Below, one piece after another: positions 11,247 through 45,296 of a stretch of 64,000 nucleotides of DNA (positions are counted from its first letter, which is position 1; every line of letters begins with the position of its first letter). The translations under genes were made by a program, and so were the position numbers. Origin of the DNA: Kiritimatiellia bacterium (lineage in GTDB: Bacteria > Verrucomicrobiota > Kiritimatiellia > RZYC01); assembly GCA_028708815.1 (NCBI GenBank), contig JAQVYB010000004.1, positions 660 to 64,659 on the forward strand, written 5' to 3'. A model generated the notes under the pieces. It was not told the origin of the DNA, made no database searches, and worked only from the letters and a program-made list of their open reading frames with translations.

Positions 11247-11353
11247 CCCACGCGCGAGGGCTCCAGATACCGAACAAAACAGAAGGCGAGCGGCCTGCTA
11301 ACCGAGCAACCGGCACTTATTCAGCCTCGAACAGCGTAAAGACGGGGCACTGT

Positions 11354-16804: not shown

Positions 16805-17138
16805 ACTGAGAGCACTCCTCTTATGTCATAAGTAAATAGACCTCTGGCACCATATTTTCAGCGACTTCGGAACGACCAGGAAATACTACACCATTCAAGA
16901 ATAAAATGTGATTTGTATACGCCAAGCACTGACATCCTAGTCTCCTGTATTGGCCTGACAAACTAAATATGAATCATAATTGAGGGGTGACGAATGAAAA
17001 GACCACTGCTCTAACGGCAAGAAGTTATGTCATCGGTTGATAAAGATGGGCCGGGAACACTTCCCCTTGTTTTCGATCCTGTTCACCCCCATCTTTTGCT
17101 TGCATAACACCCCCAACCCCTGCAAGCTTCGCCCAACC

Positions 17139-17588
17139 ATGACAACACAACCAAAAGACCAAGATAAGTCCATGATTCCCGACCTGCAATCCAGCGTTAT
17201 CTGCGATGATGTCCGCCAGGAACGGAACGGAAAATTCATGCTGATCGGCCTCTTTGATGCCATTGGCGCACCCGAACTGCCCCTCCGCTATCCCCGCCTC
17301 TTTGCGGTCACCCGCTGGTGCAGCGGTGAAGGAAATTTCATCCAGCACACCCGCATACTCCAACCGGACCAAAGCAACGTGCTGATTGAAGGCAAGGACA
17401 TACCCGTCACCCTCAACAATCCCGAATCCTCCGCCACCAATGTCGAGGTGTTCGTCAATGTCACCTTCGAGCAGGAAGGAACCTACTGGATCGAAATTCT
17501 GCTGGATGGCGATATTAAAATACGCTATCCCTTGCGCGTTGGAAAGGTTCAGCCACAACCCGGGCAACCCCCTTTCCCCCCGGCCTGA
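17139..17588 (+). CDS. Hypothetical protein
   Basis: Coding-like ORF upstream of and co-oriented with ETF-QO; start set at the internal ATG 17139 (the ORF-track start at 17037 lies in AT-rich spacer); no recognisable domain. Confidence 0.4.
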   Translation: MTTQPKDQDKSMIPDLQSSVICDDVRQERNGKFMLIGLFDAIGAPELPLRYPRLFAVTRWCSGEGNFIQHTRILQPDQSNVLIEGKDIPVTLNNPESSATNVEVFVNVTFEQEGTYWIEILLDGDIKIRYPLRVGKVQPQPGQPPFPPA

Positions 17589-17619
17589 CAGACCGGACAA
17601 ACGGCAGGAATAACGCATC

Positions 17620-19269
17620 ATGAGCGACGAAACACAACGCGACATACTGGACGTGGACGTGGTTTGCGTGGGAGCCGGCATCGCCTCCCTGAGCACCGCC
17701 CTGCAGTTTCTGAAAAGAGCCGCCGCCGAACCCGAATCCGAGCCGCCGACCGTCCTCATCCTGGAAAAAGGGCTCTATCCCGGAGCGCACATCCTATCCG
17801 GGGCCGTGGTGGATTCCGAGCCGCTCAAACGCCTCCTCTCCGAAGACGAATTCAACGCCCTGCCCTTCTACGATTCCGTTCGATCGGAGAAATTCGCCTA
17901 TCTTACACCCCGTCATGCGCTGAATCTTCCGCTAACGCCCCCCCCCATGAAGGCCCTGGGCCTTCCGATCGCATCCCTTTCGGACCTCACCCGCCATCTC
18001 GCCGAACTCTGCGAGGCGCACGGCGCGGAAGTCTATTCTGAAATGCCGGTCGCCTCGCTGCTGGAAAAAGAAGGCCGCATCATCGGCGTACGCCTCGGTG
18101 ACAAAGGGGTGGACAAAGAAGGCCACCCAAAAAGTAATTTTGAACCGGGCGCGGACGTACACGCCCACATGGTCATCCTCGGCGAAGGGGCGCAGGGCGT
18201 ACTCACCAGCCAACTGATCGAACAGCAGGGACTCGACGCGGGCACCAACGAACAAGCCTATGCCATCGGCCTAAAGGAAGTCTTCGAAATCCCCGCCGCG
18301 CCCGAGCGCGTCGGCCACATCATGCACACCTTCGGCTACCCGCTCCCGCAGGATATGTACGGCGGTGGATTTCTGTACTGTCTCGACGCCACGCATGTAG
18401 CCGTCGGACTCGTCATCGCCCTCGATTACCGTCGCCCCGAAATCAATCCCCACGAACTCTTTCGCGCCTACAAGGCACATCCCCGAATCAACGCCTTTCT
18501 CACCGCCGGGAAACCGGTGAGCTACGGCGCAAAAATTCTACCCGAAGGCGGACTCTACGCCCTCCCGCGTCTCATCACCGAGGGAGCCATGATTGTGGGT
18601 GATGCCGCAGGTCTGCTCGACGCCGTTCGCCTCAAAGGGGCCCACCTGGCCGTCGAATCCGGCCTCGCAGCAGGCAACGCACTCTATGCCTGCCGGGAGA
18701 ACAACGACTGGTCGTGCACGCAGGCCGCCGCCTATCCCGAAGCCCTGCAAAAAAGCCCCGGCTGGAAAAAAATGCGTCAGTATCGAAACGCGCGCCAATG
18801 GTTTGACTGGGGCCTCCTGCCCGGCATGGCCGCCATCGGCGCCGCCTTCTTCACCGCCGGAATCCTCCCACCCGGACGCAAGGCCAAAGCCCAAGATCAT
18901 CCCGTGCAACCCGCCGGAAAGAAAAAACCCGTGGCGCTCCCCACCCTCGAACGGCATGTGGAAAAATCACACCGCCTCGATATTCTATCCGACCTGTATC
19001 TCTCCGGTACCGAACATGAAGAGGACCAACCCGGCCACCTGATCATCAACAATCCCGAAATCTGCCGCGACTGCATTGAGCTTTATCAGGCCCCCTGCAC
19101 CCGCTTTTGCCCCGCGCAGGTCTATGAACTCCCCGAAGGCACCGAACGCATCACCATCCAACCCGCAAACTGCCTGCATTGCAAAACCTGCCAAATCAAA
19201 TGCGCCATGCAGAACATTGAATGGAAACTCCCCGAAGGCGGAGGAGGACCGCGCTACAAAAACATGTAG
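17620..19269 (+). CDS. Electron-transfer flavoprotein-ubiquinone oxidoreductase (ETF-QO, FixC-like)
   Basis: N-terminal FAD fold DVVCVGAGIASLS; C-terminal 4Fe-4S ferredoxin-like region CRDCIELYQAPCTRFCPAQVY...CLHCKTCQIKC; length ~549 aa typical of ETF-QO. Confidence 0.9.
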   Translation: MSDETQRDILDVDVVCVGAGIASLSTALQFLKRAAAEPESEPPTVLILEKGLYPGAHILSGAVVDSEPLKRLLSEDEFNALPFYDSVRSEKFAYLTPRHALNLPLTPPPMKALGLPIASLSDLTRHLAELCEAHGAEVYSEMPVASLLEKEGRIIGVRLGDKGVDKEGHPKSNFEPGADVHAHMVILGEGAQGVLTSQLIEQQGLDAGTNEQAYAIGLKEVFEIPAAPERVGHIMHTFGYPLPQDMYGGGFLYCLDATHVAVGLVIALDYRRPEINPHELFRAYKAHPRINAFLTAGKPVSYGAKILPEGGLYALPRLITEGAMIVGDAAGLLDAVRLKGAHLAVESGLAAGNALYACRENNDWSCTQAAAYPEALQKSPGWKKMRQYRNARQWFDWGLLPGMAAIGAAFFTAGILPPGRKAKAQDHPVQPAGKKKPVALPTLERHVEKSHRLDILSDLYLSGTEHEEDQPGHLIINNPEICRDCIELYQAPCTRFCPAQVYELPEGTERITIQPANCLHCKTCQIKCAMQNIEWKLPEGGGGPRYKNM

Positions 19270-31550: not shown

Positions 31551-32960
31551 CTAGAATGTGCAGGATGTACTCACGGTGAATACATTCCGTTCATATGTAT
31601 ACAGATCAAAATTGGAATTGTTTCGGGTAAACCGATAACTTAAATCAACGTTCCACCGATCATTCAATCGCCGGCTCACTCCGCAGGCGATAATGCCCTG
31701 CTTATCATCGCGGTCATCGGCCGACAATGGCGGGCGTTCATCGTATTTCGACCAGCGCCCCTGAAGCAGCCCGTACAGCGAGGTGTGGGAGAACAACCGG
31801 TAATCCGCCGAGAGGCTCCCTTCGACGCCCCAATTCGCATACATCTCCTCCCGGGCCTCTTCACGAATCAGGCGCGCACCCAACGACACACTGTTGCGGT
31901 CACGCCCCCAGAGCCAACGCAGCGTTTCACCCAGCGATCCCGTCATGCCGGTATAATCGGAATCATGCACGTAATCCCGATACTCCAGCGTACCCAGCGT
32001 CAACAGATGCATATTGGCCCTTAATGCATACACCAGGGAGGGGCTCGTCCCGTAGATACGCGCCAGCGCCTCATGCCCGCGCAGCACATACTCCAATCGC
32101 AGCGGCCAGTGCAAAGCATGCCGAACACCCGTATGCTTCAGTCCGATGGCCGCATTATAATAGCCCATTTCGTATTCATTGTGGTCATCCAGCACCGACT
32201 GGTAAGCACCCAGCCAGCCGTATCCCTTCCAAAAGCCCTTGCGCCCAAGTTCCACTTCCGCCGCCGTGCTCAGGGATCCATACATCCCCCAGGCCTCCTG
32301 GGGTTTCGATTCCGGATCCACCGCCAGCGTATCAATCCAAAAACTCCCGCTGCGGATCGGCTCGATGCTGATCAAGGCATCTGCCGGCCCCACATTCACG
32401 TTGTCATCATGAAAACCACCCACATCCAACCTCAGCGACCAATGCCAGGCCTGCTCCTCCGCCACCATCGCCTCCAAACGACGGTTGATGCTTTCGCGCA
32501 CGCCTTCGGGCGGGCTCTCCGCCAACACCAGAGCAAACTGCTCGCGCGCGAGATCATTCTGCTGCATCAAGACATAAACATCCGCCAGTTCCAGCCGCGC
32601 ACGCAAATGGTCCGGCTGCACCGACAGCACCCGCTCCAACGCCAAGGCCGAATGAGAATACTTCCCCGCCCGCTTCGCCGCGAGGGCATACGCCAGATTG
32701 ATCTGCACATCCGAAGGATTTTCCCGAAACAATTGGGAAAAGGCTCCGCAGGCTTCCGGATAGCGCCCCGCTTCGTAGTCCTTCCAGGCCGATGCAAAGG
32801 CCGGGTTCACCAGCTTCGCGGAAAACATGGAACGGTCATCGGCGGATCTCTCCGCTCCCGACGCGCACGGCAGGAACAAAAGACCCGCCGGCAAAAACAG
32901 CAGCATCAACAGGCGTCCACTCAACACGCTATCCTCCTGTCCGATCGTACGACGCCTCAC
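31551..32960 (-). CDS. TPR-repeat outer-membrane beta-barrel protein (DUF560/Slam-like architecture)
   Basis: Signal peptide, N-terminal TPR-like helices, C-terminal alternating amphipathic strands ending in a terminal Phe (…VSTSCTF). Confidence 0.55.
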   Translation of the reverse strand: MRRRTIGQEDSVLSGRLLMLLFLPAGLLFLPCASGAERSADDRSMFSAKLVNPAFASAWKDYEAGRYPEACGAFSQLFRENPSDVQINLAYALAAKRAGKYSHSALALERVLSVQPDHLRARLELADVYVLMQQNDLAREQFALVLAESPPEGVRESINRRLEAMVAEEQAWHWSLRLDVGGFHDDNVNVGPADALISIEPIRSGSFWIDTLAVDPESKPQEAWGMYGSLSTAAEVELGRKGFWKGYGWLGAYQSVLDDHNEYEMGYYNAAIGLKHTGVRHALHWPLRLEYVLRGHEALARIYGTSPSLVYALRANMHLLTLGTLEYRDYVHDSDYTGMTGSLGETLRWLWGRDRNSVSLGARLIREEAREEMYANWGVEGSLSADYRLFSHTSLYGLLQGRWSKYDERPPLSADDRDDKQGIIACGVSRRLNDRWNVDLSYRFTRNNSNFDLYTYERNVFTVSTSCTF

Positions 32961-33052
32961 CCTGAAGGTTCCGCGCCTTTAGTAACCAATGAAGTGAAAG
33001 TGTAGAACAACCAAACGACCTCGGCAACATTAACTTTCCCATAGCGGGATTT

Positions 33053-33140
33053 TTCCAATCGTTGGAAACTTTTTTCCGCGTTTTTCCAATCGTTGGAAAA
33101 AGGGCAAGAGGATCGGCACGACCCTTTCCAATCATTGGAA
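33053..33140. repeat. Three copies of the TTCCAATC(A/G)TTGGAA inverted-repeat element (spacing 31 and 42 bp)
   Basis: Cores at 33053, 33084 and 33126; same motif as the arrays at 25.1 kb and 49.7 kb. Confidence 0.85.
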
Positions 33141-33147
33141 AAAGCAG

Positions 33148-33178
33148 AAAGCCCGTGCGGACGCACGGGCTTTCTTTT
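33148..33178 (-). terminator. Strong hairpin terminator (12-bp stem AAAGCCCGTGCG/CGCACGGGCTTT) downstream of the M20 hydrolase gene
   Basis: Perfect 12-bp stem with 2-nt loop flanked by A-run and T-run (potentially bidirectional). Confidence 0.65.
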
Positions 33179-33203
33179 GGTTTTCGCTTTTTGGAATGGT
33201 TGA

Positions 33204-34421
33204 TTATCCGTTCTTCACGCGCTCACAGTAGAGCGAGGGAATGGCGGCATACATGGCGGCAGCCTGCACCAACTCGGATTTCCAGGTCAGTTCGTTCGGA
33301 GCGTGGGCCTGATCTTCATGGCCCGGCCCAAAACCGACCACCGGAATGTCGTGCATCCCCATGATCGCCACGCCATTCGTGGAAAACGTCCACTTATCCA
33401 CTACCGGCTCCTTATTGAAAAGCCCCTGGTAGGCGGACACGAGCGACTGGGTCGGCGCGGCATCCTCGGGAATGACCCAGGTCGGGAAATATTTTTTCGT
33501 GGGATAAACCAGGCCGGTATAGGCCGCGCGTTCATAGGTGAGCACCTCGACCGTTGCATCCGGATAGCCCGCGCGTGCGGCGGCATCCTTGAGTTCGGCA
33601 CAGGCGATTTCCTCGGTTTCACCCACGGTCAGACGGCGGTCCACCTGGATCGTGGCCGAATCGGGCACGGCGCACTGCGAGGGCGAGGAGAAAAAGAACT
33701 GGGTAGCCGTAACGGTGCCTTTGCCAAGAAATTCGTCATCGGCCAGACGCTCGTTCAGCTTTTCGATTTCCAGGGCAATACGCGCCATTTTATAGATCGC
33801 ATTGTCACCGCGTTCGGGCGCCGAACCGTGGCAGGACAACCCCTTAATGCTGACCGTCATTTCCATACGCCCGCGATGGCCCCTGTAAATCCGGCACGAG
33901 GTGGGCTCGGTGGAAACCACGAATTCCGGACGGATTCCGCTTTCCTTGATAATGTATTGCCAGCACAGTCCATCGCAATCCTCTTCCATCACCGTGCCGG
34001 TCACCAACAGCGTGAACTCATCCTCCAACTTCAAATCCTTGATGATCTTTCCGGCGTAGACCATGGAGGCCATCCCGCCTTCCTGATCGGACCCGCCGCG
34101 CCCGCCAATCGCATCTCCTTCTTCCATGCCCTGATAGGGGTCAAATTTCCAGAGACTGCGATCGCCGATACCCACGGTGTCAATATGGGCGTCCATGGCA
34201 ATCAGATGTTTTCCCTTGCCGATCCAGCCGAGAATGTTCCCCATGCCATCCACTTCCACCTTATCAAATCCCACGGCTTCCATTTCCTGCCGAATACGCT
34301 CCACCACCGCACGCTCCTCGCAGCTTTCGCTCGGAATGGCAATCATGTCACGAAGGAAACGGGTCATTTGCGGTTTGTATTCTTCGGCTTTGTTCAGAAT
34401 GGCCTTGAAATCAACACTCAT
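33204..34421 (-). CDS. Peptidase M20-family metallohydrolase (YgeY/ArgE/DapE-like)
   Basis: M20 signatures ([17 protein letters not shown], metal-binding D/E/H pattern, dimerisation insert); ATG 34421 has a strong AGGAGAAG RBS; alternative start 34445. Confidence 0.8.
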
Positions 34422-34554
34422 GTTCTTCTCCTGCTTGCTGTTCATGGTGCGGCTCCGTTCGGGAAGCCGGGGACGGCCTTGCTGCCGGCCAATGGGAGTG
34501 AATATACACCAGAGTGCCCGATCATGAATGGGAAATCAGCTTTTATTTTCCTGA

Positions 34555-34830
34555 TTACGCCGGAGGAAAATCAAATTCCGTTTCAAAAAGATCGGCCAGT
34601 TTACGGCAGAAGGCTTCTTCCCCCTCCCCTTCCACACGAATGACGATCTGCGCCCCCTGTTCGAGACCCATGGAGATCAGATCGAGCACCGAACGCAGCG
34701 TACAGGTGCCATGCCCCGGCGATTCCACCTGAATGGTACCCGAATAGGATGCGGCCGCCTTGATAATCAGGGCGGATGGCCTGCAATGAATGCCTGCGCT
34801 GTTCTTGATGGTTGCGTTGAGTTCTATCAT
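34555..34830 (-). CDS. HPr-family phosphocarrier protein
   Basis: Active-site region NSAGIHCRPSALIIKAA (His15 context) and regulatory Ser region; ~91 aa; start at ATG 34830. Confidence 0.75.
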   Translation of the reverse strand: MIELNATIKNSAGIHCRPSALIIKAAASYSGTIQVESPGHGTCTLRSVLDLISMGLEQGAQIVIRVEGEGEEAFCRKLADLFETEFDFPPA

Positions 34831-34947
34831 GGACCTCTGCCTGCCGGGACGAAACAACATCCGCCCCAAAAGGCCCTATATCTAGGCATCGACATCCTGA
34901 AATGCAATCTCTTTGTAGCACTTTCGCAGCCGGCGGAAATAGACCTG

Positions 34948-34976
34948 TTGACAGATCGCGTGTTAAGAACTATGAT
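34948..34976 (+). promoter_or_regulatory. Sigma-70-type promoter TTGACA-17 bp-TATGAT for FG-GAP gene copy A
   Basis: Near-consensus -35 and -10 hexamers with 17-bp spacer; same architecture conserved upstream of the paralogue at 38469-38497. Confidence 0.55.
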
Positions 34977-35048
34977 CCGATTATCATTGGTGCCAAGTGT
35001 AATATCCATGGGGGGGTTGCAGGAAGGGTGCCGCAAAGGAGGTTATTT

Positions 35049-38000
35049 ATGCGCTCAATTCACGTCCTTTTCATTGCTGTTGCTTTCACCCTGTTTCTAT
35101 TCACCCCAATCGCTCCGGCCGTCACACCGCTTTCCGATCCGGCGGCACTGACGGCCAATCTGTATACCAACCCCGCTCCGACCGTGAATGCCCGGCTCGG
35201 TTCCGCTGCAGCTGTTCACGGCAATTACCTGCTGATGGGTGCGCACAGGCACAACAACGACAAAGGGGCATGCCATCTGTACAACAAGACCCCGGACAAC
35301 CGTTGGGAACTGGAAGAAACAAAAACGTTTTCCCTGGGTTCCGCACAATTCGGCGGTTCGGTGGCCATTAACGATACTTATTTTTTTGTAGGCGGGATGT
35401 ATTATGATAACGGGGCCTACTCAGATGCCGGCGCCGTGGCAATGTATGGCAAGAACGCCCTCGGGAACTGGAAGAGTCTTGGGATGCTGTATCCAGGGGA
35501 CCTCTCCGCTCAAGCCTATTTCGGCAACAGCCTTGCCCTGCATGAACACTATCTGGCGGTCGGCTCATTCGGACATAACGGCAAACGCGGGGCCGTATAT
35601 ATTTTCACCAATTCCGCCGGAACCTGGACGCAAACAGCCCGCCTGGCCCCCGGCGACCTGGCCGCCAACAACTGGTTCGGGGACGCCCTGGCCATGAATA
35701 ATCAGTACCTTGCAATAGGTGCTCCCTATCAAAGTGCCAACGGCATAGCCTCCTCAGGAGCCGTATACCTTTACAAGAACATCAACGGCACCTGGACCTA
35801 TCAGAAAAAACTGACCGGCGGAAATATGGCCAACGCTTACTTCGGCTCATCCGTGGCCCTTTCAGACAAATTCCTGTTGATCGGCTCTCCATATGAACCC
35901 ATCGACGGAATCAACCCCGGTGCGGTGTATGTATATGACCTCAGCCAAAGTTCCACGCCGGTGAAATGCCTGCTCACAGCCATCACCCCTCAGGATGACG
36001 CGGCCTTCGGCAGCGCCGTGGCTCTGGATGGAAATGCCGCCATTGTCGGCGCGCCTCTTTATGACGACGACGCCACGACACATGCCGGACTGGTAACCTT
36101 GTACCAATATGACGAATCCGCCGGTTCATGGTACACCATTCGCGATCTTCCCACCCAATCCCTGAGCGCAGAAGATCGTTTCGGCGATCATCTAGCCATG
36201 TACCGCAACACCCTCGTCTGCACGGCCCCCTATGCCGACCAGGACGTTCTATCCAATGCCGGAAACTTCTACGTCTACGATCTCAACCAGACTTGGTTTA
36301 GCGAAGGCAAAGCCGCAGGCGACCAGTCGGGCTCCCGCGTAGGACTCAACGGCACCCGCCTCGCCGCTTCCGCACCCTATCGAAACGCAAACGGCCTCAA
36401 CAGCTCAGGTGCCGTGGATATCTTCCGCAAACATGGACGCGATTGGACCCTCGAACAAACGCTGACCGAGCCCGTAGGCTCGCGGGCGGCCAACAACTAC
36501 TTCGGCTACGGAATGGCCCTCGGGCGTAACGCATTGATCGCCGCCGCCGACTTGGGCGACTATGGTTATTCAAACAACGGGAAAATCTACATCTATGAAC
36601 GCTCCGGCAACACTTGGAATGCGGTCTATTCACGCACGGGACAAGGCGATAATTGGAAGTACGGTAACAACGTCGCCATGGGCGAAACACACGCCGCCGC
36701 CACCCGCTACAATTCCGGAAATCTGGCCACCTACATCGACACCTTCACACGTGCGGGAAATGGCACCTGGTCGCTGGACCCCACCTCCGTCTCCCCCAAA
36801 TTCGGGTCAGGCGACATTGACTTCGGATGCGACATCGCCATCGATGGCGACTGGATGCTTGTCGGTTCAAGCGCCTATGACTCCGACAGAGGCGGCATCC
36901 ACCTCTACCAATGGGATGGCAATCGGTGGGTTGGGAAGTATGGAGCACTCGGGCTTCCCGGGTCCCTCTTTGGTGCCGGCGTGGACGTCTGCGGCAATCT
37001 CTTTGCGGCAGGACGCCCCGGCGTTGATGAGCAACGCGGTAGCGTTAGGCTTTACGGCGTCAATGGAGATTCCTTCGTCTATTACGCCACACTAACCGCA
37101 CCCGACGGCGTCGCCGGCGACCGCTTCGGCTGGTCCGTCGCCTTTGCCAAACAGGGGAACACCCTTCTCGTCAGTGCCTACAAAAAACACCTCGGTTCCC
37201 TAAGCGATGTGGGCGCAATATACGTCTACCGAAAGGGTGCCAATAACTCCAACTGGACCTATGACGGCATCATCTATCCACCTGATAACGGGTCCCTTTC
37301 AGCATCTGACTACTTTGGAAAAGATATCGCCGCCGCAGGCAACTCGCTCGTCGCCGGACTCTACAGCTACGACGGCGAAGCCGGCAATAGCGCCGGCGCC
37401 GTGGCCCAAATTCAGATCACCCCCTTCACCACCCCAGCCGATTTTGATGGCGATGGCATCACCGATTTCGGATGCTACCACCCCCCCTCCGGCGGGTGGT
37501 ATGTCTACAAAAGCCGCGAGGGATACTGGGAAAACCATTTCGGCTACGAAGGAACCCTCCCCTTTGTGATGGACTGCGACGGCGACTGGAAGGTCGACTT
37601 CGGATGCTACCACTCCGCCTCCGCAAACTGGTACGGCTACGGCACCGTCAAAAAATTCTGGACCTCTGCTTTCGGAAACCCCAACACCCAATCCATCACC
37701 GGTGACTTCGATGGCGACGGCGTGGTTGACCTGGGATTCTTTGATTCCTCCATTCCCAAGTTCTACTTTATGTGTTCCACGCGGGGCTACAGAGACGACC
37801 AATTCGGTTTGACCGACACCGTGCCCATCACCGGCGATTTCGATGGCGACGGAATCGACGACTACGGCACGTACTACGACGTGACCGGCGCCTGGAACAT
37901 CCGCCGAAGCCGCGACGGCGACTGGGCCAACAACTTCGGCTACGAAGGCACCCTCCCCGTCACCGGCGATTTCGATGGCGACAACATCATGGACTTCGGA

Positions 38001-38231
38001 TGCTACCATCCCCCCAGCGGCGGATGGTATATCTATAAAAGCACCGACGGCTACTGGGAAAACTACTTCGGATTCGAAGGCACTCTCCCCGTCACCGGCG
38101 ATTTCGATGGCGATGGAATCGAAGACTTCGGATGCTACCATCCGCCGACGGGCGCCTGGTACGTCTACAAAAGCAACGAAGGATTCTGGGAAAACTACTT
38201 CGGTTACGAAGGCACGATCCCGATGAATTGA
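35049..38231 (+). CDS. Secreted FG-GAP repeat beta-propeller protein with C-terminal Trp-rich DFDGDG repeats (paralogue A)
   Basis: Signal peptide MRSIHVLFIAVAFTLFLFTPIAPA; ~14 FG-GAP-like repeats (FGGSVAI.., FGNSLAL.., FGDALAM..); 8 C-terminal ~40-aa repeats (GDFDGDGITDFGCYHPPSGGWYVYKS); RBS AAAGGAGG. Confidence 0.8.
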   Translation: MRSIHVLFIAVAFTLFLFTPIAPAVTPLSDPAALTANLYTNPAPTVNARLGSAAAVHGNYLLMGAHRHNNDKGACHLYNKTPDNRWELEETKTFSLGSAQFGGSVAINDTYFFVGGMYYDNGAYSDAGAVAMYGKNALGNWKSLGMLYPGDLSAQAYFGNSLALHEHYLAVGSFGHNGKRGAVYIFTNSAGTWTQTARLAPGDLAANNWFGDALAMNNQYLAIGAPYQSANGIASSGAVYLYKNINGTWTYQKKLTGGNMANAYFGSSVALSDKFLLIGSPYEPIDGINPGAVYVYDLSQSSTPVKCLLTAITPQDDAAFGSAVALDGNAAIVGAPLYDDDATTHAGLVTLYQYDESAGSWYTIRDLPTQSLSAEDRFGDHLAMYRNTLVCTAPYADQDVLSNAGNFYVYDLNQTWFSEGKAAGDQSGSRVGLNGTRLAASAPYRNANGLNSSGAVDIFRKHGRDWTLEQTLTEPVGSRAANNYFGYGMALGRNALIAAADLGDYGYSNNGKIYIYERSGNTWNAVYSRTGQGDNWKYGNNVAMGETHAAATRYNSGNLATYIDTFTRAGNGTWSLDPTSVSPKFGSGDIDFGCDIAIDGDWMLVGSSAYDSDRGGIHLYQWDGNRWVGKYGALGLPGSLFGAGVDVCGNLFAAGRPGVDEQRGSVRLYGVNGDSFVYYATLTAPDGVAGDRFGWSVAFAKQGNTLLVSAYKKHLGSLSDVGAIYVYRKGANNSNWTYDGIIYPPDNGSLSASDYFGKDIAAAGNSLVAGLYSYDGEAGNSAGAVAQIQITPFTTPADFDGDGITDFGCYHPPSGGWYVYKSREGYWENHFGYEGTLPFVMDCDGDWKVDFGCYHSASANWYGYGTVKKFWTSAFGNPNTQSITGDFDGDGVVDLGFFDSSIPKFYFMCSTRGYRDDQFGLTDTVPITGDFDGDGIDDYGTYYDVTGAWNIRRSRDGDWANNFGYEGTLPVTGDFDGDNIMDFGCYHPPSGGWYIYKSTDGYWENYFGFEGTLPVTGDFDGDGIEDFGCYHPPTGAWYVYKSNEGFWENYFGYEGTIPMN

Positions 38232-38270
38232 GCGCCCCGACAACCCGTTCGGATTCGGTATCGGACAGTA

Positions 38271-38396
38271 TTACGGGTCCTCGCCGAGGCCCACCAGAGT
38301 GGCGAGGCCTCCCGCAGCCGTTTCCCGGTACTTCGGATTCATATCGCGCCTGGCTTCCACCATGGCCCGAATGGTTTTATCGAGGTCCACCCGTAG
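38271..38396 (-). pseudogene. Duplicated 3'-terminal fragment (~42 codons) of L-serine dehydratase sdaA
   Basis: Near-identical at nucleotide level to the 3' end of the intact sdaA at 41803-41930, including the stop codon; no upstream coding continuation. Confidence 0.6.
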
Positions 38397-38468
38397 GTCG
38401 GCAGCGCTGCGGACATACTGAAGGGCAACCTCTTTGCAGCACTTTCGCAACCGGAAAAAATGGACATA

Positions 38469-38497
38469 TTGACAGACAGCGTATTCAAGACTATGAT
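38469..38497 (+). promoter_or_regulatory. Sigma-70-type promoter TTGACA-17 bp-TATGAT for FG-GAP gene copy B
   Basis: Conserved duplicate of the promoter at 34948-34976. Confidence 0.55.
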
Positions 38498-38571
38498 TCG
38501 ATCAGTGTTGGTGCCGGGGTCAATACCCATGGGGGGGCTTGCAAGGCAGGCACTGCTAAAGGAGGTTATTT

Positions 38572-41500
38572 ATGCGCTCAATTCACGTCCTTTTCATTGC
38601 TGTTGCTTTCACCCTGTTTCTATTCACCCCAATCGCTCCGGCCGTCACACCGCTTTCCGATCCGGCGGCACTGACGAGCATCCTCTACGAAAACCCGGCA
38701 GCCATTGCCAACGATTATTTCGGATACGGCCTGGCCATTGACGGAAATTACCTGCTGGCGGGCGTTCCGGGAAGATCAACATACAAAGGAGGCTACAACC
38801 TCTACGGAAAGACGCCGGACAACCAATGGGAACTACTGCGTACGCACACCTACAGTCAAAACGGCGCCGGGTTCGGCGGGGCCGTGGCCATCAATGAAAA
38901 CAACCTTCTGGTCACCGCCGATCGATACGATCACGAAGGCTATACCGATGCCGGAGGCGTATCCGTCGAAACAAAAAGTGCGATGGGCTTATGGGAGGAA
39001 CAACCCATGCTCGTCGCAAGCGACCCACGCAACAATGCACGCTTCGGCGCGGCGCTCTGTCTGCATGAATCGCTTTTGGCGGTCGGCGCGAATGAGTATA
39101 ACAATGGCCGAGGAGCGGCCTATCTCTTCACCAACACCAACGGAGCCTGGACCCAGATAGACCGCATCGTCCCCAACGACCTAAGCGAAAACGATAAGTT
39201 CGGCTCGGCCCTGGCCGTGAATAATCAGTTTCTGGCCATCGGCGCCCCACAACAGGATCTCAACGCAATCGCCGATTCAGGAGCCGTATATCTCTATGAA
39301 AACAACAACGGAACCTGGACCTATTGGAAAAAGCTGGACGGCGGAAACGCCGCCGGGGCGAAATTCGGCTCGGCCATCGCCCTCTCCGGAAACGTCCTGA
39401 TGATCGGCGCACCCTCCGCGCCCATTGGCGGCGTCGCCGTCGGTTTGGTCTATGTGTACGATCTCGGCCAAGACAGCACACCGATCTCCCACGTGCTCGC
39501 CGGCGCCAACCCACAACTCAACGCATCCTTTGGCTCCACAGTGGCGCTGGACGGGAATCTGGCCGTTGTGGGCGCCCGATTCTACGATGGCGATGCCAAC
39601 AGCTCCGGACGGGCCACGCTGTATCAGTATGATAAAACAAGAAACATCTGGTATGCGATCCGCGAACTGCCCACCCAAACCCTGAACGCAAGCGACCGCT
39701 TCGGCACGTCCATTGCCGTCTACCGAAACCAAATAGCCTGCGCCGCACCATTCGCCCTCCAGGGCGCGGCGACAAGCTGCGGAAACTTCTATGTCTACGA
39801 CCTCAATCAAACCTGGTTTCGTGCCGGGCAAACCGCGGAGGACTACTACGGCCACCGCGTCGGACTGAATGGAACCCGCCTGGCCGCCTCCGCTCCCTAT
39901 CGAGACGCGAACGGCATCAACAACTCCGGGTCCGTGGAACTCTTCCGCAAGCGTGGGCGCGACTGGACGCTCGAACAAAACCTGACCGAAGACGCCTCCT
40001 CGCGCGCGGCAAACAACCGGTTCGGCTACGGGATGGCCCTCGGGCGCAACACACTGATCGTCTCCGCCCCCGGGGGTGACTATGATTATGTCAACAACGG
40101 GAAAATATACATCTATAAACGCACGGGGAACGCCTGGAATGCAGTCTATTCACGTACGGGGCAAGGCGACAACTGGCAGTACGGAACCACTGTCGCGCTG
40201 AACGACTCCCACGCCGCCGCCACCCGCTACAACCCCGGCAACGGAGCCACCTACATCGACACCTTCACTCGCGCGGGAAACGGCACTTGGTCCAAGGATG
40301 CCTTTTCCGTGTCGCCGTACTTCGGCGCGGACGCGGGCGCCATAGGCTTCGGCTGCGACATTGCCATCGACGGAAACTTCATGGTGGTAGGTTCGAGCAG
40401 CTACCTCCTCAATCAGGGAGGCTTCCATATCTACAAATGGCAGACCGACCGCTGGCGCGGTGTTGCCGGAACATACAGCATGATTGCAGACGATTTGACG
40501 GGCACCAGTGTGGACCTTTGCGGAAACCTCATTGCGGCAGGCTCCCCCGGTCGAAGCAGCAGCCAGGGAATCGTCAAGCTCTACGGCCTCGGTGATGAGA
40601 CCCTCCTGTTTTACGCCACTCTATCCGCACCCGACGCAAAAGACGGTGACCGCTTCGGCTACTCCGTCGCCTTTGCCAACCAGGGAAACACCCTCCTGGT
40701 CGGCGCCTACAAAAAACACATGGGCGACCTGCAGGATGTCGGCGCCGTATACGTCTACCGAAAGGGCGCCAACAATTCCACCTGGACCTATGACGGAACC
40801 ATCTATCCGCCCGACAACGGATCCCTCACTCACCTCGACTACTTCGGCAAGGACATCGCCGCATTCGGCAACTCCGTGGCCGCCGGACTCTACGGCTTCA
40901 ACAGCGAAGACGACGGTGACCGTGCCGGCGCCGTGGCCCAAATTCAAATCACCCCCTTCACCGCACCCGCCGATTTCGATGGCGACGGCATTACCGACTT
41001 CGGATGCTACCATCCCCCATCCGGCGGATGGTACGTATACAAAAGCCGCGAGGGATACTGGGAAAACCATTTCGGCTATGAAGGAACCCTCCCCTTTGTG
41101 ATGGACTGCGACGGCGACTGGAAGGTCGACTTCGGATGCTACCACTCCGCCTCCGCAAACTGGTACGGCTACGGCACCGTAAAGAAATTCTGGACCTCTG
41201 CTTTCGGAAACCCCAACACCCAATCCATCACCGGTGACTTCGATGGCGACGGCGTGGTTGACCTGGGATTCTTTGATTCCTCCATTCCCAAGTTCTACTT
41301 TATGTGTTCCACGCGGGGCTATACAGACGACCAATTCGGCTTTACTGATACCGTACCCATCTCCGGCGATTTCGATGGCGACGGAATCGACGACTACGGC
41401 ACCTACTACGACGTGACCGGCGCCTGGAACATCCGCCGAAGCCGCGACGGCGACTGGGCCAACAACTTCGGCTACGAAGGCACTCTCCCCGTCACCGGCG

Positions 41501-41763
41501 ATTTCGATGGCGACGGAATCATGGACTTCGGATGCTACCATCCCCCCAGCGGCGGATGGTATATCTATAAAAGCACCGACGGCTACTGGGAAAACCACTT
41601 CGGATTCGAAGGCACTCTCCCCGTCACCGGCGATTTCGATGGCGACGGAATCGAAGACTTCGGATGCTACCATCCGCCGACGGGCGCCTGGTACGTCTAC
41701 AAAAGCAACGAAGGATTCTGGGAAAACTACTTCGGTTACGAAGGCACCATCCCGCTGAATTGA
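38572..41763 (+). CDS. Secreted FG-GAP repeat beta-propeller protein with C-terminal Trp-rich DFDGDG repeats (paralogue B)
   Basis: Identical signal peptide to copy A; diverged FG-GAP propeller half; C-terminal ~350 aa nearly identical to copy A. Confidence 0.8.
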   Translation: MRSIHVLFIAVAFTLFLFTPIAPAVTPLSDPAALTSILYENPAAIANDYFGYGLAIDGNYLLAGVPGRSTYKGGYNLYGKTPDNQWELLRTHTYSQNGAGFGGAVAINENNLLVTADRYDHEGYTDAGGVSVETKSAMGLWEEQPMLVASDPRNNARFGAALCLHESLLAVGANEYNNGRGAAYLFTNTNGAWTQIDRIVPNDLSENDKFGSALAVNNQFLAIGAPQQDLNAIADSGAVYLYENNNGTWTYWKKLDGGNAAGAKFGSAIALSGNVLMIGAPSAPIGGVAVGLVYVYDLGQDSTPISHVLAGANPQLNASFGSTVALDGNLAVVGARFYDGDANSSGRATLYQYDKTRNIWYAIRELPTQTLNASDRFGTSIAVYRNQIACAAPFALQGAATSCGNFYVYDLNQTWFRAGQTAEDYYGHRVGLNGTRLAASAPYRDANGINNSGSVELFRKRGRDWTLEQNLTEDASSRAANNRFGYGMALGRNTLIVSAPGGDYDYVNNGKIYIYKRTGNAWNAVYSRTGQGDNWQYGTTVALNDSHAAATRYNPGNGATYIDTFTRAGNGTWSKDAFSVSPYFGADAGAIGFGCDIAIDGNFMVVGSSSYLLNQGGFHIYKWQTDRWRGVAGTYSMIADDLTGTSVDLCGNLIAAGSPGRSSSQGIVKLYGLGDETLLFYATLSAPDAKDGDRFGYSVAFANQGNTLLVGAYKKHMGDLQDVGAVYVYRKGANNSTWTYDGTIYPPDNGSLTHLDYFGKDIAAFGNSVAAGLYGFNSEDDGDRAGAVAQIQITPFTAPADFDGDGITDFGCYHPPSGGWYVYKSREGYWENHFGYEGTLPFVMDCDGDWKVDFGCYHSASANWYGYGTVKKFWTSAFGNPNTQSITGDFDGDGVVDLGFFDSSIPKFYFMCSTRGYTDDQFGFTDTVPISGDFDGDGIDDYGTYYDVTGAWNIRRSRDGDWANNFGYEGTLPVTGDFDGDGIMDFGCYHPPSGGWYIYKSTDGYWENHFGFEGTLPVTGDFDGDGIEDFGCYHPPTGAWYVYKSNEGFWENYFGYEGTIPLN

Positions 41764-41802
41764 GCACGCCGACAACCCGTTCGGATTCGGCATCGGACAG
41801 TA

Positions 41803-43182
41803 TTACGGTTCCTCGCCGAGGCCCACCAGAGTGGCGAGGCCTCCCGCAGCCGTTTCCCGGTACTTCGGATTCATATCGCGCCCGGTTTCCACCATGGCCC
41901 GAATGGTTTTATCGAGGTCCACCCGGTGGAAGCGCGAGATTTCCGCGCCGGCGATAAGATAGGCCGTATAGGCCTTCACCGCACCCATCGCGTTACGCTC
42001 GATGCACGGAATCTGCACATAGCCACACACCGGATCGCAGGTCATGCCCAGATGATGTTCCAACGCCGTCTCCGCCGCATTTTCCACCACGCGCATCTCG
42101 GAGGTGTTTGCATAGGTCAGCAGCGCCGCCGACATACTCGAAGCCACCCCCACCTCCCCCTGACACCCCACCTCCGCACCCGCGATACTCGCATTGTGCT
42201 TCGCCAAAAAACCAATCACCGCCGCCGCCATCAGCCCGTCCTGCAAGGTCACGTGTTCCATCTTCATGTAGTGCTTCATGAAATAATACGTCGCAGCCAT
42301 AACCCCGGCCGAACCGCACGTGGGCGAAGTCACCACCGGTTGCCCCGCCGCATTCTCTTCCGCCACGGCAAAGGCATACGCACACAGATACAAGAGAAAA
42401 TGATCGCTGCGCCCGGCCAAACGTTTCGCGCGACGATAGATCCCAGGCGCCTTGCGGTAATAGTTGAGCGGGCCGGGCAGCATCCCCTCCACCTCCAGAC
42501 CATGCTCCACCGAACGTTCCATTACCGAAAATAAATAATCCACCTTCGCATAGATTTCCTCCTCCGTTGCGCCGGTAATCGCCCGCTCATTATCAATCAC
42601 CAGCTCCACCAAACGAAGATTCTTTGTTTCCATCAGCTTTTTCAGCTCGCGCATGGTGGTGAAAGGGTGCACCGGATCGCCACGCTCCGGCGCCACATAG
42701 CCGTCCCACTGCAGAAAACCCCCGCCCACCGAATAGTATTCCCGCTCCGAAAGCACCCCGCCCTGCGCATCAAGCAGACGAATACGAAGCGTATTGCTGT
42801 TGGGCAGATTCGTCCGCTCCAGGTCAAAGATAATATCTGCCTCGCGGAAGCTGATCGAACCCGGACGAAGCTCGATTTTCCATGTACCCTCAGGACTATC
42901 CAGCAGACCATCCAGATACCCCAGCGGACACTGCTCCGGCGCCACACCCAGTAACCCGCCGAGCACCGCCTTGTCCGTGCCATGCCCTTTGCCGGTGGCG
43001 CTCAACGAACCATACAGCGTCACCTCCACCCGCGCAGCCTGACGTTTCTTTTCCGCCGACAGCCCGCGAATCTGCTGCAAAAAATGATAGCCCGCCTTCA
43101 TGGGGCCGATCGTATGCGAACTCGAGGGCCCCGGCCCCACCTTGAACAAATCAAAAACCGATGTCACGATCCCGCCGCTCAT
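41803..43182 (-). CDS. sdaA: L-serine dehydratase (L-serine ammonia-lyase), single-chain iron-sulfur type
   Basis: N-terminal FDLFKVGPGPSSSHTIGPM motif and full-length similarity pattern to SdaA-type enzymes (459 aa). Confidence 0.9.
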   Translation of the reverse strand: MSGGIVTSVFDLFKVGPGPSSSHTIGPMKAGYHFLQQIRGLSAEKKRQAARVEVTLYGSLSATGKGHGTDKAVLGGLLGVAPEQCPLGYLDGLLDSPEGTWKIELRPGSISFREADIIFDLERTNLPNSNTLRIRLLDAQGGVLSEREYYSVGGGFLQWDGYVAPERGDPVHPFTTMRELKKLMETKNLRLVELVIDNERAITGATEEEIYAKVDYLFSVMERSVEHGLEVEGMLPGPLNYYRKAPGIYRRAKRLAGRSDHFLLYLCAYAFAVAEENAAGQPVVTSPTCGSAGVMAATYYFMKHYMKMEHVTLQDGLMAAAVIGFLAKHNASIAGAEVGCQGEVGVASSMSAALLTYANTSEMRVVENAAETALEHHLGMTCDPVCGYVQIPCIERNAMGAVKAYTAYLIAGAEISRFHRVDLDKTIRAMVETGRDMNPKYRETAAGGLATLVGLGEEP

Positions 43183-43205
43183 AAACGCCTCTCCTTTTCC
43201 GCCAC

Positions 43206-45296
43206 TCAGGCGCGGCGCGTGCCCGCTGCGTCCGTTCGGCCAAGCGCTTCGTGAAGATCGGAAGCCACCACGTTGGCAATCTTCTCGGAGACGCCTTTGT
43301 TCTCCATCAGTTCTCCGAGGGTTCTCATCTCCAGAATAAGCCCGAGTCGTCGAATGGCCGACTCCTGCAAAGCCCGTAGTGCAGAATCGTAGTGAGTGGA
43401 GAGCGACTGCAGGTTTTGCGAAGCCGTCTCATGCAGCGCACGAAAGAACAACTGACAGAACATCAGCGCATCCTCGTCCGCCCCGCTCAGCTCTGCGAGG
43501 CGCGGCAGCACCTGCTCGGTATGCCGGTTCGCCTCCGACATCGCCAGGCAGATCGAATAGTCCAGTTTCAGCTTCCACTTGCGTACCTGGGCGGCAGGCG
43601 CACTGTTCGGGGCCACCCGGTCCAACAGGCGCACCAGGGCGTTATTACATCGCTCTTCAAGAGAAAGCACGCGCCGCACGCGCGGAGGAATCACCGCTTG
43701 AGCCACATCCTCCCGACACATATCCAGAAAATGCTCCAGTTCCCGCAGCACCGATTCCCGGATGAACCCCAGCTCATACATCTTGGTCCAAACTCCATCC
43801 GTTGAATTAAACGCCTGCTCCCAGAGCATCCGCGTACAAACGGCCGCAGGCAGTGGATTCCCCGAGCTCATTTGTTTTTCTGCCGCATCCACCTCCGCCC
43901 GGTAAACGGTCATGCTCCGCTGAAGCAATTCGCGATCCGGCATCTTCCAACCGCTTTCAATAGCGGTCAGCTCCTTCAGACTCTCACGCCTGATCGCCAG
44001 TTCCGTATTTGTTTTTTCATACCTATCGAGCAGCGAAAGCCGATCCAACCGCATCCAGTGCATAAAGCGATTGATGGACATCCCCTGAATAATCAGCGTG
44101 AACATCACCACGCCAAGGGTGAAATCCAGAATCAGCAACCGGTTCATCTCGCCGCCCACCTGCGCCGCCGTCAGGCTCATCGCCAACCCGATCGGAAGCG
44201 CGCCGCGCAAACCGCCCCAGAACATCAACACCTGGTACGGCACGCGAATCGGACGCTGTTTGCCGAATCGGTTCATCAGCGGGACAATGCCGAAGATCAC
44301 CACAGCCCGGGCAAACAGCACCGTCAAAACCGCCAGTGCCACATATTTCCCAACCTGGGTTATATGGGTGGCATCGCGCGTCAGGTAATCCTCGGTCAAA
44401 CCCAGCAGCAGAAAAATGTAGCTGTTGGCGGCAAACGAGGCGAATTCCCAGAACTGCTTGATGTATGTACGCGCCGTCGGCGTAAAACGGGTCGGGCGGT
44501 AATAACCCACCACGAGACCTGCGCCCACCACGGCCATGACACCCGACAAATCCAGATAAAACTGCGCCAAAATAAAGGCCGCATAGGCCACCACCGTGGT
44601 TATGCCGATTTCAATCAGTGGTTCTTCGCGGGCAAGCGAAAGGAGCTGCACCATCACAAAGCCCACCAGAGCGCCCACCAGCGTCCCCCCCGCAAACACC
44701 GTCACAAACTGAAGCCCCGCCTGAAACAGCGTTGCCGCGCCCAACGCCACCCCGCTCGTGAGAAGCCCCAGGACAATATTGAACATCACAATGGCCGTCG
44801 CATCATTAAAGAGACTTTCCCCGTCCACCAGCATCGTCAGGCGTTTGGGCGCACCCAGCTCCTTGAACATGGCAATCACCGCCACCGGATCCGTCGCGGA
44901 AATCAGGCCGCCGAACAACATCGCAGCGCCCAGCGAAAGCGGCGTCCAGCGGGCGGTCAGCAGGCCGGTGATGACCGTGGCAATCACCAAACCAGGCGCT
45001 GCCAGAATCAACACCGGGCGCAGATTCTTGATCAACAGCCGCGCATCCATATTCACCGCCGCGTCAAACACCAGAGTCGGCAGCAGGATGTAGAGAATGA
45101 TATTGGGAGTCAGATGAATATGCTTCATGGGGCCGAGCCAGTGATAGTGATTTCCCAGCACCCCCAGCAACAAGCCGATCAGCACCAATCCAACCGTATA
45201 GGGAAACTTGATGCGCTTGAAAAATATCGCCGCCAGGCAGGAAAACAGCAGCATCAATACCAGGCAACTAATCACCGAAACCGGAATATCAGCCAT
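43206..45296 (-). CDS. Na+/H+ antiporter, CPA1/NhaP family, with C-terminal cytoplasmic regulatory domain
   Basis: ~12 TM helices with the CPA1 motif region (ATDPVAVIAMFKELG, ESLFNDATAIV); ~250-aa soluble C-terminal domain. Confidence 0.85.
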   Translation of the reverse strand: MADIPVSVISCLVLMLLFSCLAAIFFKRIKFPYTVGLVLIGLLLGVLGNHYHWLGPMKHIHLTPNIILYILLPTLVFDAAVNMDARLLIKNLRPVLILAAPGLVIATVITGLLTARWTPLSLGAAMLFGGLISATDPVAVIAMFKELGAPKRLTMLVDGESLFNDATAIVMFNIVLGLLTSGVALGAATLFQAGLQFVTVFAGGTLVGALVGFVMVQLLSLAREEPLIEIGITTVVAYAAFILAQFYLDLSGVMAVVGAGLVVGYYRPTRFTPTARTYIKQFWEFASFAANSYIFLLLGLTEDYLTRDATHITQVGKYVALAVLTVLFARAVVIFGIVPLMNRFGKQRPIRVPYQVLMFWGGLRGALPIGLAMSLTAAQVGGEMNRLLILDFTLGVVMFTLIIQGMSINRFMHWMRLDRLSLLDRYEKTNTELAIRRESLKELTAIESGWKMPDRELLQRSMTVYRAEVDAAEKQMSSGNPLPAAVCTRMLWEQAFNSTDGVWTKMYELGFIRESVLRELEHFLDMCREDVAQAVIPPRVRRVLSLEERCNNALVRLLDRVAPNSAPAAQVRKWKLKLDYSICLAMSEANRHTEQVLPRLAELSGADEDALMFCQLFFRALHETASQNLQSLSTHYDSALRALQESAIRRLGLILEMRTLGELMENKGVSEKIANVVASDLHEALGRTDAAGTRRA

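Follow-up and report, generated by a model that had tools for sequence, protein, structure and literature searches.

Probable partial concerted evolution in an old tandem pair of FG-GAP propeller genes from an uncultured Kiritimatiellae bacterium

In a stretch of 64,000 nt from an uncultured Kiritimatiellae bacterium, which we call the window and to which all coordinates refer unless another contig is named, two paralogous genes for FG-GAP proteins, A and B, lie between the gene for HPr and sdaA, the gene for an L-serine ammonia-lyase (L-serine dehydratase). The listing of open reading frames (ORFs), repeat finding, BLAST and global alignment all place the two genes in two adjoining head-to-tail units of about 3.52 kb, with a period of 3521–3532 nt. 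Unit A (34873–38393, plus strand) holds a promoter region, gene A, a 39-nt spacer and a 3′ fragment of sdaA, and unit B (38394–41925, plus strand) holds a promoter region, gene B, a 39-nt spacer and the first 123 nt, which are the 3′ end, of an intact sdaA. The left end of unit A, beginning TAGG at 34873, is homologous to 38394, and the homology between the units ends exactly at 38393 and 41925. At 38393..38394 the end of the sdaA fragment therefore abuts the TAGG left end of the next unit, as it should after a simple tandem duplication. This novel joint was read in the window and is also assembled in contig L086 of a second metagenome-assembled genome (MAG) of the same species. A tandem segmental duplication with a novel joint is thus confirmed.

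On the left the unit is bounded by the HPr gene (34555–34830, minus strand), which is divergent from gene A and whose start codon lies 43 nt from the unit end; the unit begins upstream of it. On the right, the intact sdaA (41803–43182, minus strand, 459 residues, Pfam SDH_alpha and SDH_beta) is convergent with gene B. Its last 41 codons (123 nt) recur as a pseudogene fragment, the sdaA relic, at 38271–38393 on the minus strand. The relic is 97.6% identical to the real gene, and all three differences are non-synonymous. Each FG-GAP stop codon is separated by the 39-nt spacer from one of these minus-strand sdaA ends, at 38271–38393 and 41803–41925, and only the latter runs on into intact sdaA. 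Upstream of the genes, a consensus scan of 34500–42100 gave just two sites that match a sigma-70-like TTGACA-17-TATGAT promoter at 11 of 12 positions, and these are the candidate promoters of gene A (34948–34976, plus strand) and gene B (38469–38497, plus strand). Their 17-nt spacers differ at 6 of 17 positions, and both genes are preceded by the identical ribosome-binding site (RBS) AAAGGAGG. The first-pass annotation, made from the letters of the window, had described this arrangement as a tandem duplication of about 3.5 kb in which each unit carries the promoter, an identical RBS and signal peptide, an FG-GAP gene and an end of sdaA, with only the distal copy continuing into an intact gene. 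Our data bear out each of these points, and since the joint and gene B are also assembled in GCA_028681075.1, the duplication is not the artefact of a single assembly. That annotation had also dated the duplication by sdaA. Indeed, sdaA was already adjacent when the duplication occurred, but the 97.6% identity is a product of conversion and gives no clock.

Gene A (35049–38231, plus strand) encodes a protein of 1060 residues with a signal peptide, 14 FG-GAP_2 blades and six 44-residue FG-GAP_3 repeats. Its paralogue, gene B (38572–41763, plus strand), encodes 1063 residues, is 72% identical to A at the amino acid level overall and 63% in the propeller, and has a product identical to the NCBI protein PHP44_01035 from a Kiritimatiellae MAG. 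We put the start of gene A at MRSIHVLF (35049) because this is the homologous start; the tool-listed ORF start at 34902 (ATG) is upstream read-through. The shared N-terminus MRSIHVLFIAVAFTLFLFTPIAPA looks like a signal peptide, judging from the shape of its n-, h- and c-regions and an APA cleavage motif, and the first 35 codons, covering this segment and the start of the mature protein, are identical in A and B. Pfam PF14312 (FG-GAP_2) matches A with an E-value of 1e-69 and B with 1e-65 (230.7 and 217.7 bits, cut-off 23). Counted by eye, fourteen blades of the form FG..A...G run from residue ~35 to ~790. A scan of the C-terminal 279 residues gave the six 44-residue repeats, of the type TGDFDGDGxxDFGCYHPPxGxWYxYKS, and this module scores above the curated cut-offs of both PF13517 (FG-GAP_3, 35.2 bits vs 26.9) and PF01839 (FG-GAP, 31.7 vs 22.1).

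An AlphaFold2 model of protein B, built on an alignment of 16 sequences, is all-beta over residues 32–792, with a predicted local distance difference test score (pLDDT) of about 90. The model of the C-terminal module (~270 residues) has a pLDDT of about 30 and is unusable. The best Foldseek matches of the B model in the PDB are integrin alpha propellers (E ~1e-17), with a template modelling score of 0.6 to the 452-residue propeller of alphaIIb. The two products thus appear, on this model, to be secreted multi-propeller proteins of integrin-alpha-like fold. The likeness lies in the FG-GAP blades and the propeller fold; the sequence identity is only 10–17%, and the window proteins come without a beta subunit, thigh or calf domains, or a membrane anchor. 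Two ORFs run antisense over the C-terminal repeat modules, at 37299–38243 (minus strand, 314 residues) and 40621–41793 (minus strand, 390 residues). These are most likely stop-free frames opposite the GAC/GGC-rich repeats and not genes.

When units A and B are aligned, their identity changes abruptly along the unit. The promoter regions (34880–35034 in unit A) are 69.4% identical. There follows a stretch of 119 nt, which we call the 5′ tract, that holds the RBS, the start codon and the first 35 codons and is 100% identical between copy A (35035–35153, plus strand) and copy B (38558–38676, plus strand). The propeller (35154–37391 in unit A) falls back to 66.4%. Finally, the C-terminal FG-GAP_3 module, the stop codon, the spacer and the sdaA fragment form a 3′ tract (copy A 37392–38393, copy B 40924–41925, both plus strand), which is 96.1% identical with 39 differences in 1002 nt; within it, the non-coding spacer and the relic reach 96.3%. 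The 5′ tract, which the first-pass annotation had not singled out, is an isolated island with only 50–70% identity on both flanks. For the 3′ tract, the maximum chi-square breakpoint falls at 37396 (chi2 306 vs a maximum of 16 in 300 permutations), and the longest identical run measures 137 nt vs at most 52 in 2000 permutations. The tract begins with a shoulder of 89% identity at 37415–37505, has three differences in 37506–37789 and eight in 37790–37830, a patch of 80% identity, and continues at 97.3%. The non-uniform identity on which the earlier claim of a gene-conversion-like pattern depended is therefore present. The near-identical C-terminal end that went with that claim is real as well but comprises about 280 codons (37392–38231), not about 350. 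The sharp switch that had been placed near 37.5 kb starts at about 37.39 kb, with the shoulder extending to 37.505 kb.

Several possible sources of this pattern within the window were also considered. Micro-conversion between the internal 132-nt repeats yielded no consistent match to the differences inside the tract. For GC-biased conversion we saw no clear signal, the GC content at third codon positions being 0.73–0.76 in the tract, 0.66–0.72 in the propeller and about 0.70 in neighbouring genes. A search of the window for a third copy or another donor gave as sole candidate a module at ~3798–4754. It is encoded by another gene of the window (plus strand) and, with 28% identity to the C-terminal FG-GAP_3 repeats, is too diverged to serve as a conversion donor.

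The order of events can be read from a related species, represented by L003, a MAG labelled Verrucomicrobiota, and by L082, a contig from a JGI metagenome that matches it with 100% identity. A metagenome scan with the propeller alignment gave four loci, and L082 adds no further lineage beyond L003. Upstream of the array, both contigs share synteny with the window, with about 80% nucleotide identity, and the synonymous divergence (dS) between window and L003 is 0.74 for the M20 peptidase, 0.60 for HPr and 0.70 for a Slam-like protein. L003 carries one full FG-GAP gene, C, at 10622–13378. Between HPr and gene C lies a scar (L003 9910–10141, the same in L082) that consists of a promoter-proximal 64 nt, 89% identical to window 34864–34927, then 95 unrelated nt, and finally the terminal 73 nt of an FG-GAP gene, stop codon included. 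The scar ends in IPMN-stop like gene A, and gene B ends in IPLN-stop. From this A-type ending it follows that a copy in the A position formerly existed in the related species and was lost by deletion. In the spacer between scar and gene C (L003 10200–10500) we also noted GC-rich palindromes that resemble repetitive extragenic palindromic elements, for example GGCCCGTGGGGACACGGGCC and GGCGTCGGAGCCCGACGCC; they have no detectable homology to the A–B spacer of the window.

We then compared the sequences A, B and C by the method of Nei and Gojobori (NG86), which gave both dS and the ratio of non-synonymous to synonymous divergence (dN/dS). Over the whole propeller (codons 36–790) dS is 1.09 for A–B, 0.75 for B–C and 1.21 for A–C, and over codons 36–280 it is 1.61, 0.69 and 2.66, respectively. 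The B–C values of 0.69–0.75 are about those of the flanking genes (0.60–0.74), and B and C are therefore orthologues in the propeller. The A–B values of 1.1–1.6 exceed this speciation level, which means that the duplication predates the split of the window species from the L003/L082 species. The tracts give the opposite picture. In the 5′ tract (codons 1–35), A and B have no differences and a dS of 0, vs 2.5 for both B–C and A–C; in the C-terminal module the A–B value is 0.16 overall and 0.03–0.06 in several 60-codon windows, vs 0.65 for B–C and 0.85 for A–C. Such low divergence (0.03–0.16 in the 3′ tract, zero in the 5′ tract) places the homogenisation later than the speciation. Nucleotide identities follow the same course: over codons 1–20, A–B identity in this comparison is 92%, and gene C is only 58–60% identical to either window copy; over codons 41–270, B–C identity is 72–82% and A–B identity 49–72%; and over codons 821–900, A and B are 98% identical to each other, with C 86–88% identical to either.

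A four-point bootstrap with 500 replicates, rooted with the copies of a more distant relative (L002) as outgroup, confirms that the topology depends on the region. The grouping (A,B) was obtained in 498/500 replicates for codons 1–35 and in 489/500 for codons 821–915, and (B,C) in 500/500 for codons 36–280 and 459/500 for codons 281–470. These data show the order duplication, speciation and then homogenisation of the ends, the hallmark of interlocus gene conversion. Gene C is itself chimeric, being of B type over codons 36–470 and of A type over codons 601–680 (dS 0.63 for A–C vs 1.41 for B–C). In one lineage at least, exchange between the paralogues has thus reached into the propeller as well.

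The first-pass annotation had further proposed diversifying pressure on a ligand-facing propeller, and this is not what we found. Over codons 36–790, dN/dS is 0.28 for A–B, 0.27 for B–C and 0.20 for A–C, with a range of 0.25–0.30 across the propeller. Among the three sequences no 60-codon propeller window rises above 0.7 (the maximum is 0.6–0.7), so that no window with dN/dS >1, as diversifying selection on the propeller would give, was seen at this resolution. The propellers differ through the age of the duplication (dS 1.1–1.6), both being under purifying selection. The C-terminal module is far more constrained, with a dN/dS of 0.05–0.08. As the identity of the tracts extends over synonymous sites, the spacer and the dead sdaA fragment, selection at the protein level cannot explain them; and since neither tract reaches such identity between species, selection on the nucleotide sequence as such is excluded too.

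The second MAG of the same species (GCA_028681075.1) contributes two contigs, L001 and L086; all compared sequences, here and above, are short-read MAG consensus. Look-ups by exact protein gave no record for genes A and B or for sdaA, and the two contigs were reached via the homologues P0002 and P0121. L001 aligns without gaps to window 32656–37747 at 99.45%, and L086 without gaps to 37832–44300 at 99.04%. Gene B lies entirely on the latter, together with the end of gene A, the sdaA relic, the joint, the promoter region of B, sdaA and an antiporter gene. The 84 nt between the two contigs are uncovered, and both contigs stop inside the 3′ tract, which is expected of a short-read assembler that meets an unresolved repeat. 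In the flanking genes and gene B, the two strains differ by 0.4–0.75%. Gene A behaves differently: six differences fall into 35035–35108, within the 5′ tract, and none into 35109–37150. The 5′ tract of gene B is the same in both strains; the A tract equals that of B in the window strain and differs from it at six positions in the other strain. A conversion from B to A in the lineage of the window strain after the strains had split would explain this difference.

In the part of the 3′ tract of the A copy that L086 covers, the strains differ at 23 of 562 nt (4.1%). In nine cases the second strain has the base of B where the A copy of the window differs from it. The other 14 are private to the A copy of the second strain, and the eleven of them that lie in the coding part all fall on third codon positions. 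One private variant matches the A-type scar of the related species and may be an ancestral A-type state that was overwritten by B in the window strain. Altogether, strain differences are enriched 5–10 fold in the tracts. It is likely, though not proven, that conversion is ongoing; we keep to "likely" because the variants are interleaved, not blocky, and because both sides of the comparison are MAG consensus. One whole codon inside the 3′ tract also differs between the window copies, AAC (Asn) at 37983–37985 in A and GGA (Gly) at 41515–41517 in B. It changes the fifth DFDGDG motif of protein A, which is of the Ca-binding type, to DFDGDN, and the A copy of the second strain also has AAC.

Taken together, these observations make it highly probable that the locus is an old tandem duplication whose ends have been homogenised by recurrent interlocus gene conversion. 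A single ancestral gene for a secreted FG-GAP multi-propeller protein, located between HPr and sdaA, would have been duplicated in tandem, in a unit with one end 43 nt upstream of the start codon of HPr and the other 123 nt within the 3′ end of sdaA. The event would have preceded the split of the window species from the L003/L082 species, and the propellers would then have diverged to about 66% nucleotide identity under purifying selection. Both ends of the unit would have been overwritten repeatedly by non-reciprocal homologous recombination, giving the 119-nt 5′ tract and the 3′ tract of about 1 kb. We infer recombination of the RecA type between the tandem copies, in short non-reciprocal patches. 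Purifying selection probably keeps long identical stretches in the C-terminal module, which would thereby stay a substrate for recombination; the propellers, at about 66% identity, may be too diverged to pair, and the mosaic would reinforce itself. The sdaA relic, presumably present since the original duplication, would provide homology on the far side, so that the 3′ tract can reach the end of the unit. Each gene is probably expressed from its own promoter, and in the window strain the most recent events, at least, would have run from B to A. Unequal crossing-over between the same repeats probably occurs too and would change the copy number.

A number of points weigh against this reading. Bubble popping and repeat resolution in short-read MAG consensus could inflate the likeness of the tracts or mix A and B variants. 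The strain variants within the tracts form no clean blocks, and their interleaving calls for several events, for mismatch repair in patches or for noise in the consensus. The comparison has just one orthologous species to draw on, and its gene C, with its A-like codons 601–680, makes the history of the three taxa more complex than a duplication plus two tracts. Moreover, no sdaA fragment and no homologue of the B promoter region are detectable in the L003 spacer between scar and gene C. The joint can therefore not be shown to be as old as the divergence of the propellers, and its age stays inferred.

Could the same old duplication have been homogenised in another way, namely by cycles of unequal crossing-over with partial re-duplication and deletion? 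Direct repeats of 1 kb that share 96–97% identity at a distance of 3.5 kb lend themselves well to unequal exchange. Relatives differ in copy number, L003 having one copy and a scar and L002 at least three, and the 84 nt left uncovered by L001 and L086 could conceal another copy number in the second strain. However, a crossover in the 3′ tract alters the copy number and would not homogenise two distinct genes that are both retained. Nor can unequal crossover make the isolated 119-nt 5′ tract, produce a patchy interior such as the 80% patch at 37790–37830 within a tract of 97–99%, or account for the differing mosaic states of two strains that are 99% identical elsewhere. We thus regard this route as decidedly unlikely. 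Of the two causes that the first-pass annotation had offered for the identity switch, gene conversion is the one supported by the orthologue comparison, the synonymous divergence and the differences between the two strains. Its other suggestion, a recent partial re-duplication, is less likely for the same three reasons of 5′ tract, patchy interior and strain-specific tract states. Identical ends around a diverged centre would also result if the whole unit had been duplicated recently and the propeller and promoter of one copy had later been replaced by a divergent import that recombined at the conserved ends, and gene C of L003 does show that propeller segments are exchangeable. This history is nevertheless very improbable. 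The B propeller differs from its syntenic orthologue C at a speciation-level dS (0.69–0.75, flanks 0.60–0.74), and A-type sequence is found in the related species too, in the scar ending PMN-stop and in codons 601–680 of gene C (dS 0.63), so that both types were vertically inherited. Additionally, the import would have to come in two patches, 34873–35034 and 35154–37391, that spare exactly the 119 nt between them.

The use of short-read MAGs, and the contig breaks in the C-terminal repeat that occur in both the second MAG and L003, raise the question of an assembly artefact, in which two strain alleles of a single-copy locus were stitched in tandem or a repeat was expanded by the assembler. 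We hold the chance of this to be extremely small. The joint links the sdaA fragment to a promoter region that is 69% identical to that of gene A, and no single-copy strain allele could supply it. Furthermore, joint, gene B and sdaA were also assembled in the second MAG, which differs by about 1%, and A and B are orthologous to different parts of the locus of the related species. That the ends are identical through selection on the nucleotide sequence, acting on a regulatory RNA, the translation-initiation context or an essential module, and not through recombination, has next to no probability. The C-terminal module is indeed constrained (dN/dS 0.05–0.08) and the 5′ tract spans the RBS and the signal peptide. 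Yet synonymous sites, non-coding spacer and dead sdaA fragment are equally identical, the tract regions are only 58–60% (5′) and 87% (3′) identical to the orthologue of the related species, and an Rfam search of 33000–44000 found no family.

Beyond the origin of the mosaic, one may speculate about its use. The homogenised 5′ and 3′ tracts could be fixed recombination handles that swap whole or partial propeller cassettes between tandem copies and strains and so diversify a secreted binding protein in environmental Kiritimatiellota. We consider this unlikely. On such a view the two copies of the window, the at least three in L002, and the one chimeric copy and scar in L003 would be parts of a cassette-shuffling system and more than duplicates in passive decay. 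As a separate matter, programmed antigenic variation based on cassettes, of the pilE/pilS or vlsE type, was rejected: both copies are full-length ORFs with a promoter-like site, an RBS and a signal peptide, and it is the conserved ends that are homogenised, not the variable part.

Further FG-GAP loci give some idea of the wider family. In L002 (3–7825, JGI 3300033146), whose proteins are 41–44% identical to those of the window, at least three tandem paralogues follow each other at distances of 40–75 nt. This array is also a mosaic, with a propeller dS from 1.3 to saturated and a C-terminal dS of 0.5–0.8 (84–91% nucleotide identity). In the more distant relative L087 (10001–18098, GCA_964542025.1), where sdaA is 85% identical at the amino acid level, sdaA is followed by a pyruvate phosphate dikinase-like (PPDK-like) gene and not by an FG-GAP gene, from which we conclude that the adjacency of FG-GAP gene and sdaA captured by the duplication is lineage-specific. 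The same contig has a 488-residue ORF (16632–18098, minus strand) near ETF-QO whose C-terminal module is about 72% identical in nucleotides to that of the window; the ETF-QO homologue of the window lies at 17170–19269. Another contig, L004, from the same MAG as L003, was uninformative, holding a distant paralogue at a non-syntenic locus. The genome scan gave mostly unrelated proteins of Acidobacteria that have only the C-terminal module in common. Upstream of the array, the window encodes at 31551–32960 (minus strand) a protein of 469 residues with N-terminal TPR repeats and a SlipAM (surface lipoprotein assembly modifier, Slam-like) beta-barrel domain (28.3 bits vs a cut-off of 22), the gene of which sits by those for the M20 peptidase and HPr. 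A Slam-like protein is unusual outside Proteobacteria, if the SlipAM match is genuine.

Concerted evolution by interlocus gene conversion is known from tufA and tufB of Salmonella. For bacterial paralogues in general, the process is well documented, for example by a survey of its long-lasting action in prokaryotes (PMC6053082), and two further papers concern gene conversion in repeat gene families of M. tuberculosis (PMC12046097, PMC13061034). The window resembles these cases in that paralogues within one genome are closer than orthologues in part of the gene, in discrete tracts that extend over synonymous sites, by homologous recombination. It differs in that only the gene ends are homogenised and the 2.2-kb centre stays orthologous between species, in a tract that passes the stop codon into the relic of a neighbouring gene, and in its host, an uncultured Kiritimatiellae bacterium. 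The bab outer-membrane adhesin paralogues of Helicobacter pylori are nearly identical at their 5′ and 3′ ends and diverge in the middle, which binds the ligand; they lie at dispersed loci, and their exchange is tied to host adaptation and phase variation. Gene conversion among babA, babB and babC produces chimeras (see PMC4552749). With bab, the window pair shares that paralogous surface or secreted binding proteins have near-identical ends and a divergent middle, and chimeras occur as in gene C of L003. Unlike bab, the window copies are in tandem, and they come without evidence of phase variation, silent copies or positive selection (dN/dS 0.25–0.3). Partial conversion is also described for eukaryotic tandem paralogues, in work on mammalian TLR1/TLR6 (PMC2077338) and on the "mosaic divergence" of HMA4 (bioRxiv 10.1101/2025.10.29.685298). 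There, too, one block is homogenised and the rest diverges, with sharp identity switches and region-dependent topologies. These are eukaryotic cases in a meiotic or mitotic context, whereas here a 3.5-kb unit with a promoter per copy lies in a bacterial chromosome.

In summary, the process is a known one and no new mechanism is involved; what we describe is a new and cleanly dated example of it in a poorly studied phylum. Because the event order can be read directly, the locus offers a well-dated natural case of partial concerted evolution in a bacterial tandem pair. It also means that the identity of duplicated segments is unusable for dating duplications, and that near-identical tracts of 1 kb disrupt assembly of MAGs from short reads: of three related assemblies, two end inside the tract. 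For the proteins, the pattern suggests a need for the C-terminal FG-GAP_3 module and the export signal to remain alike in both paralogues, with the double propeller free to differ. This may be a hint that the C-terminal module and the export signal serve a common function, possibly anchoring or secretion, and that the propeller serves a specific one, possibly ligand binding.

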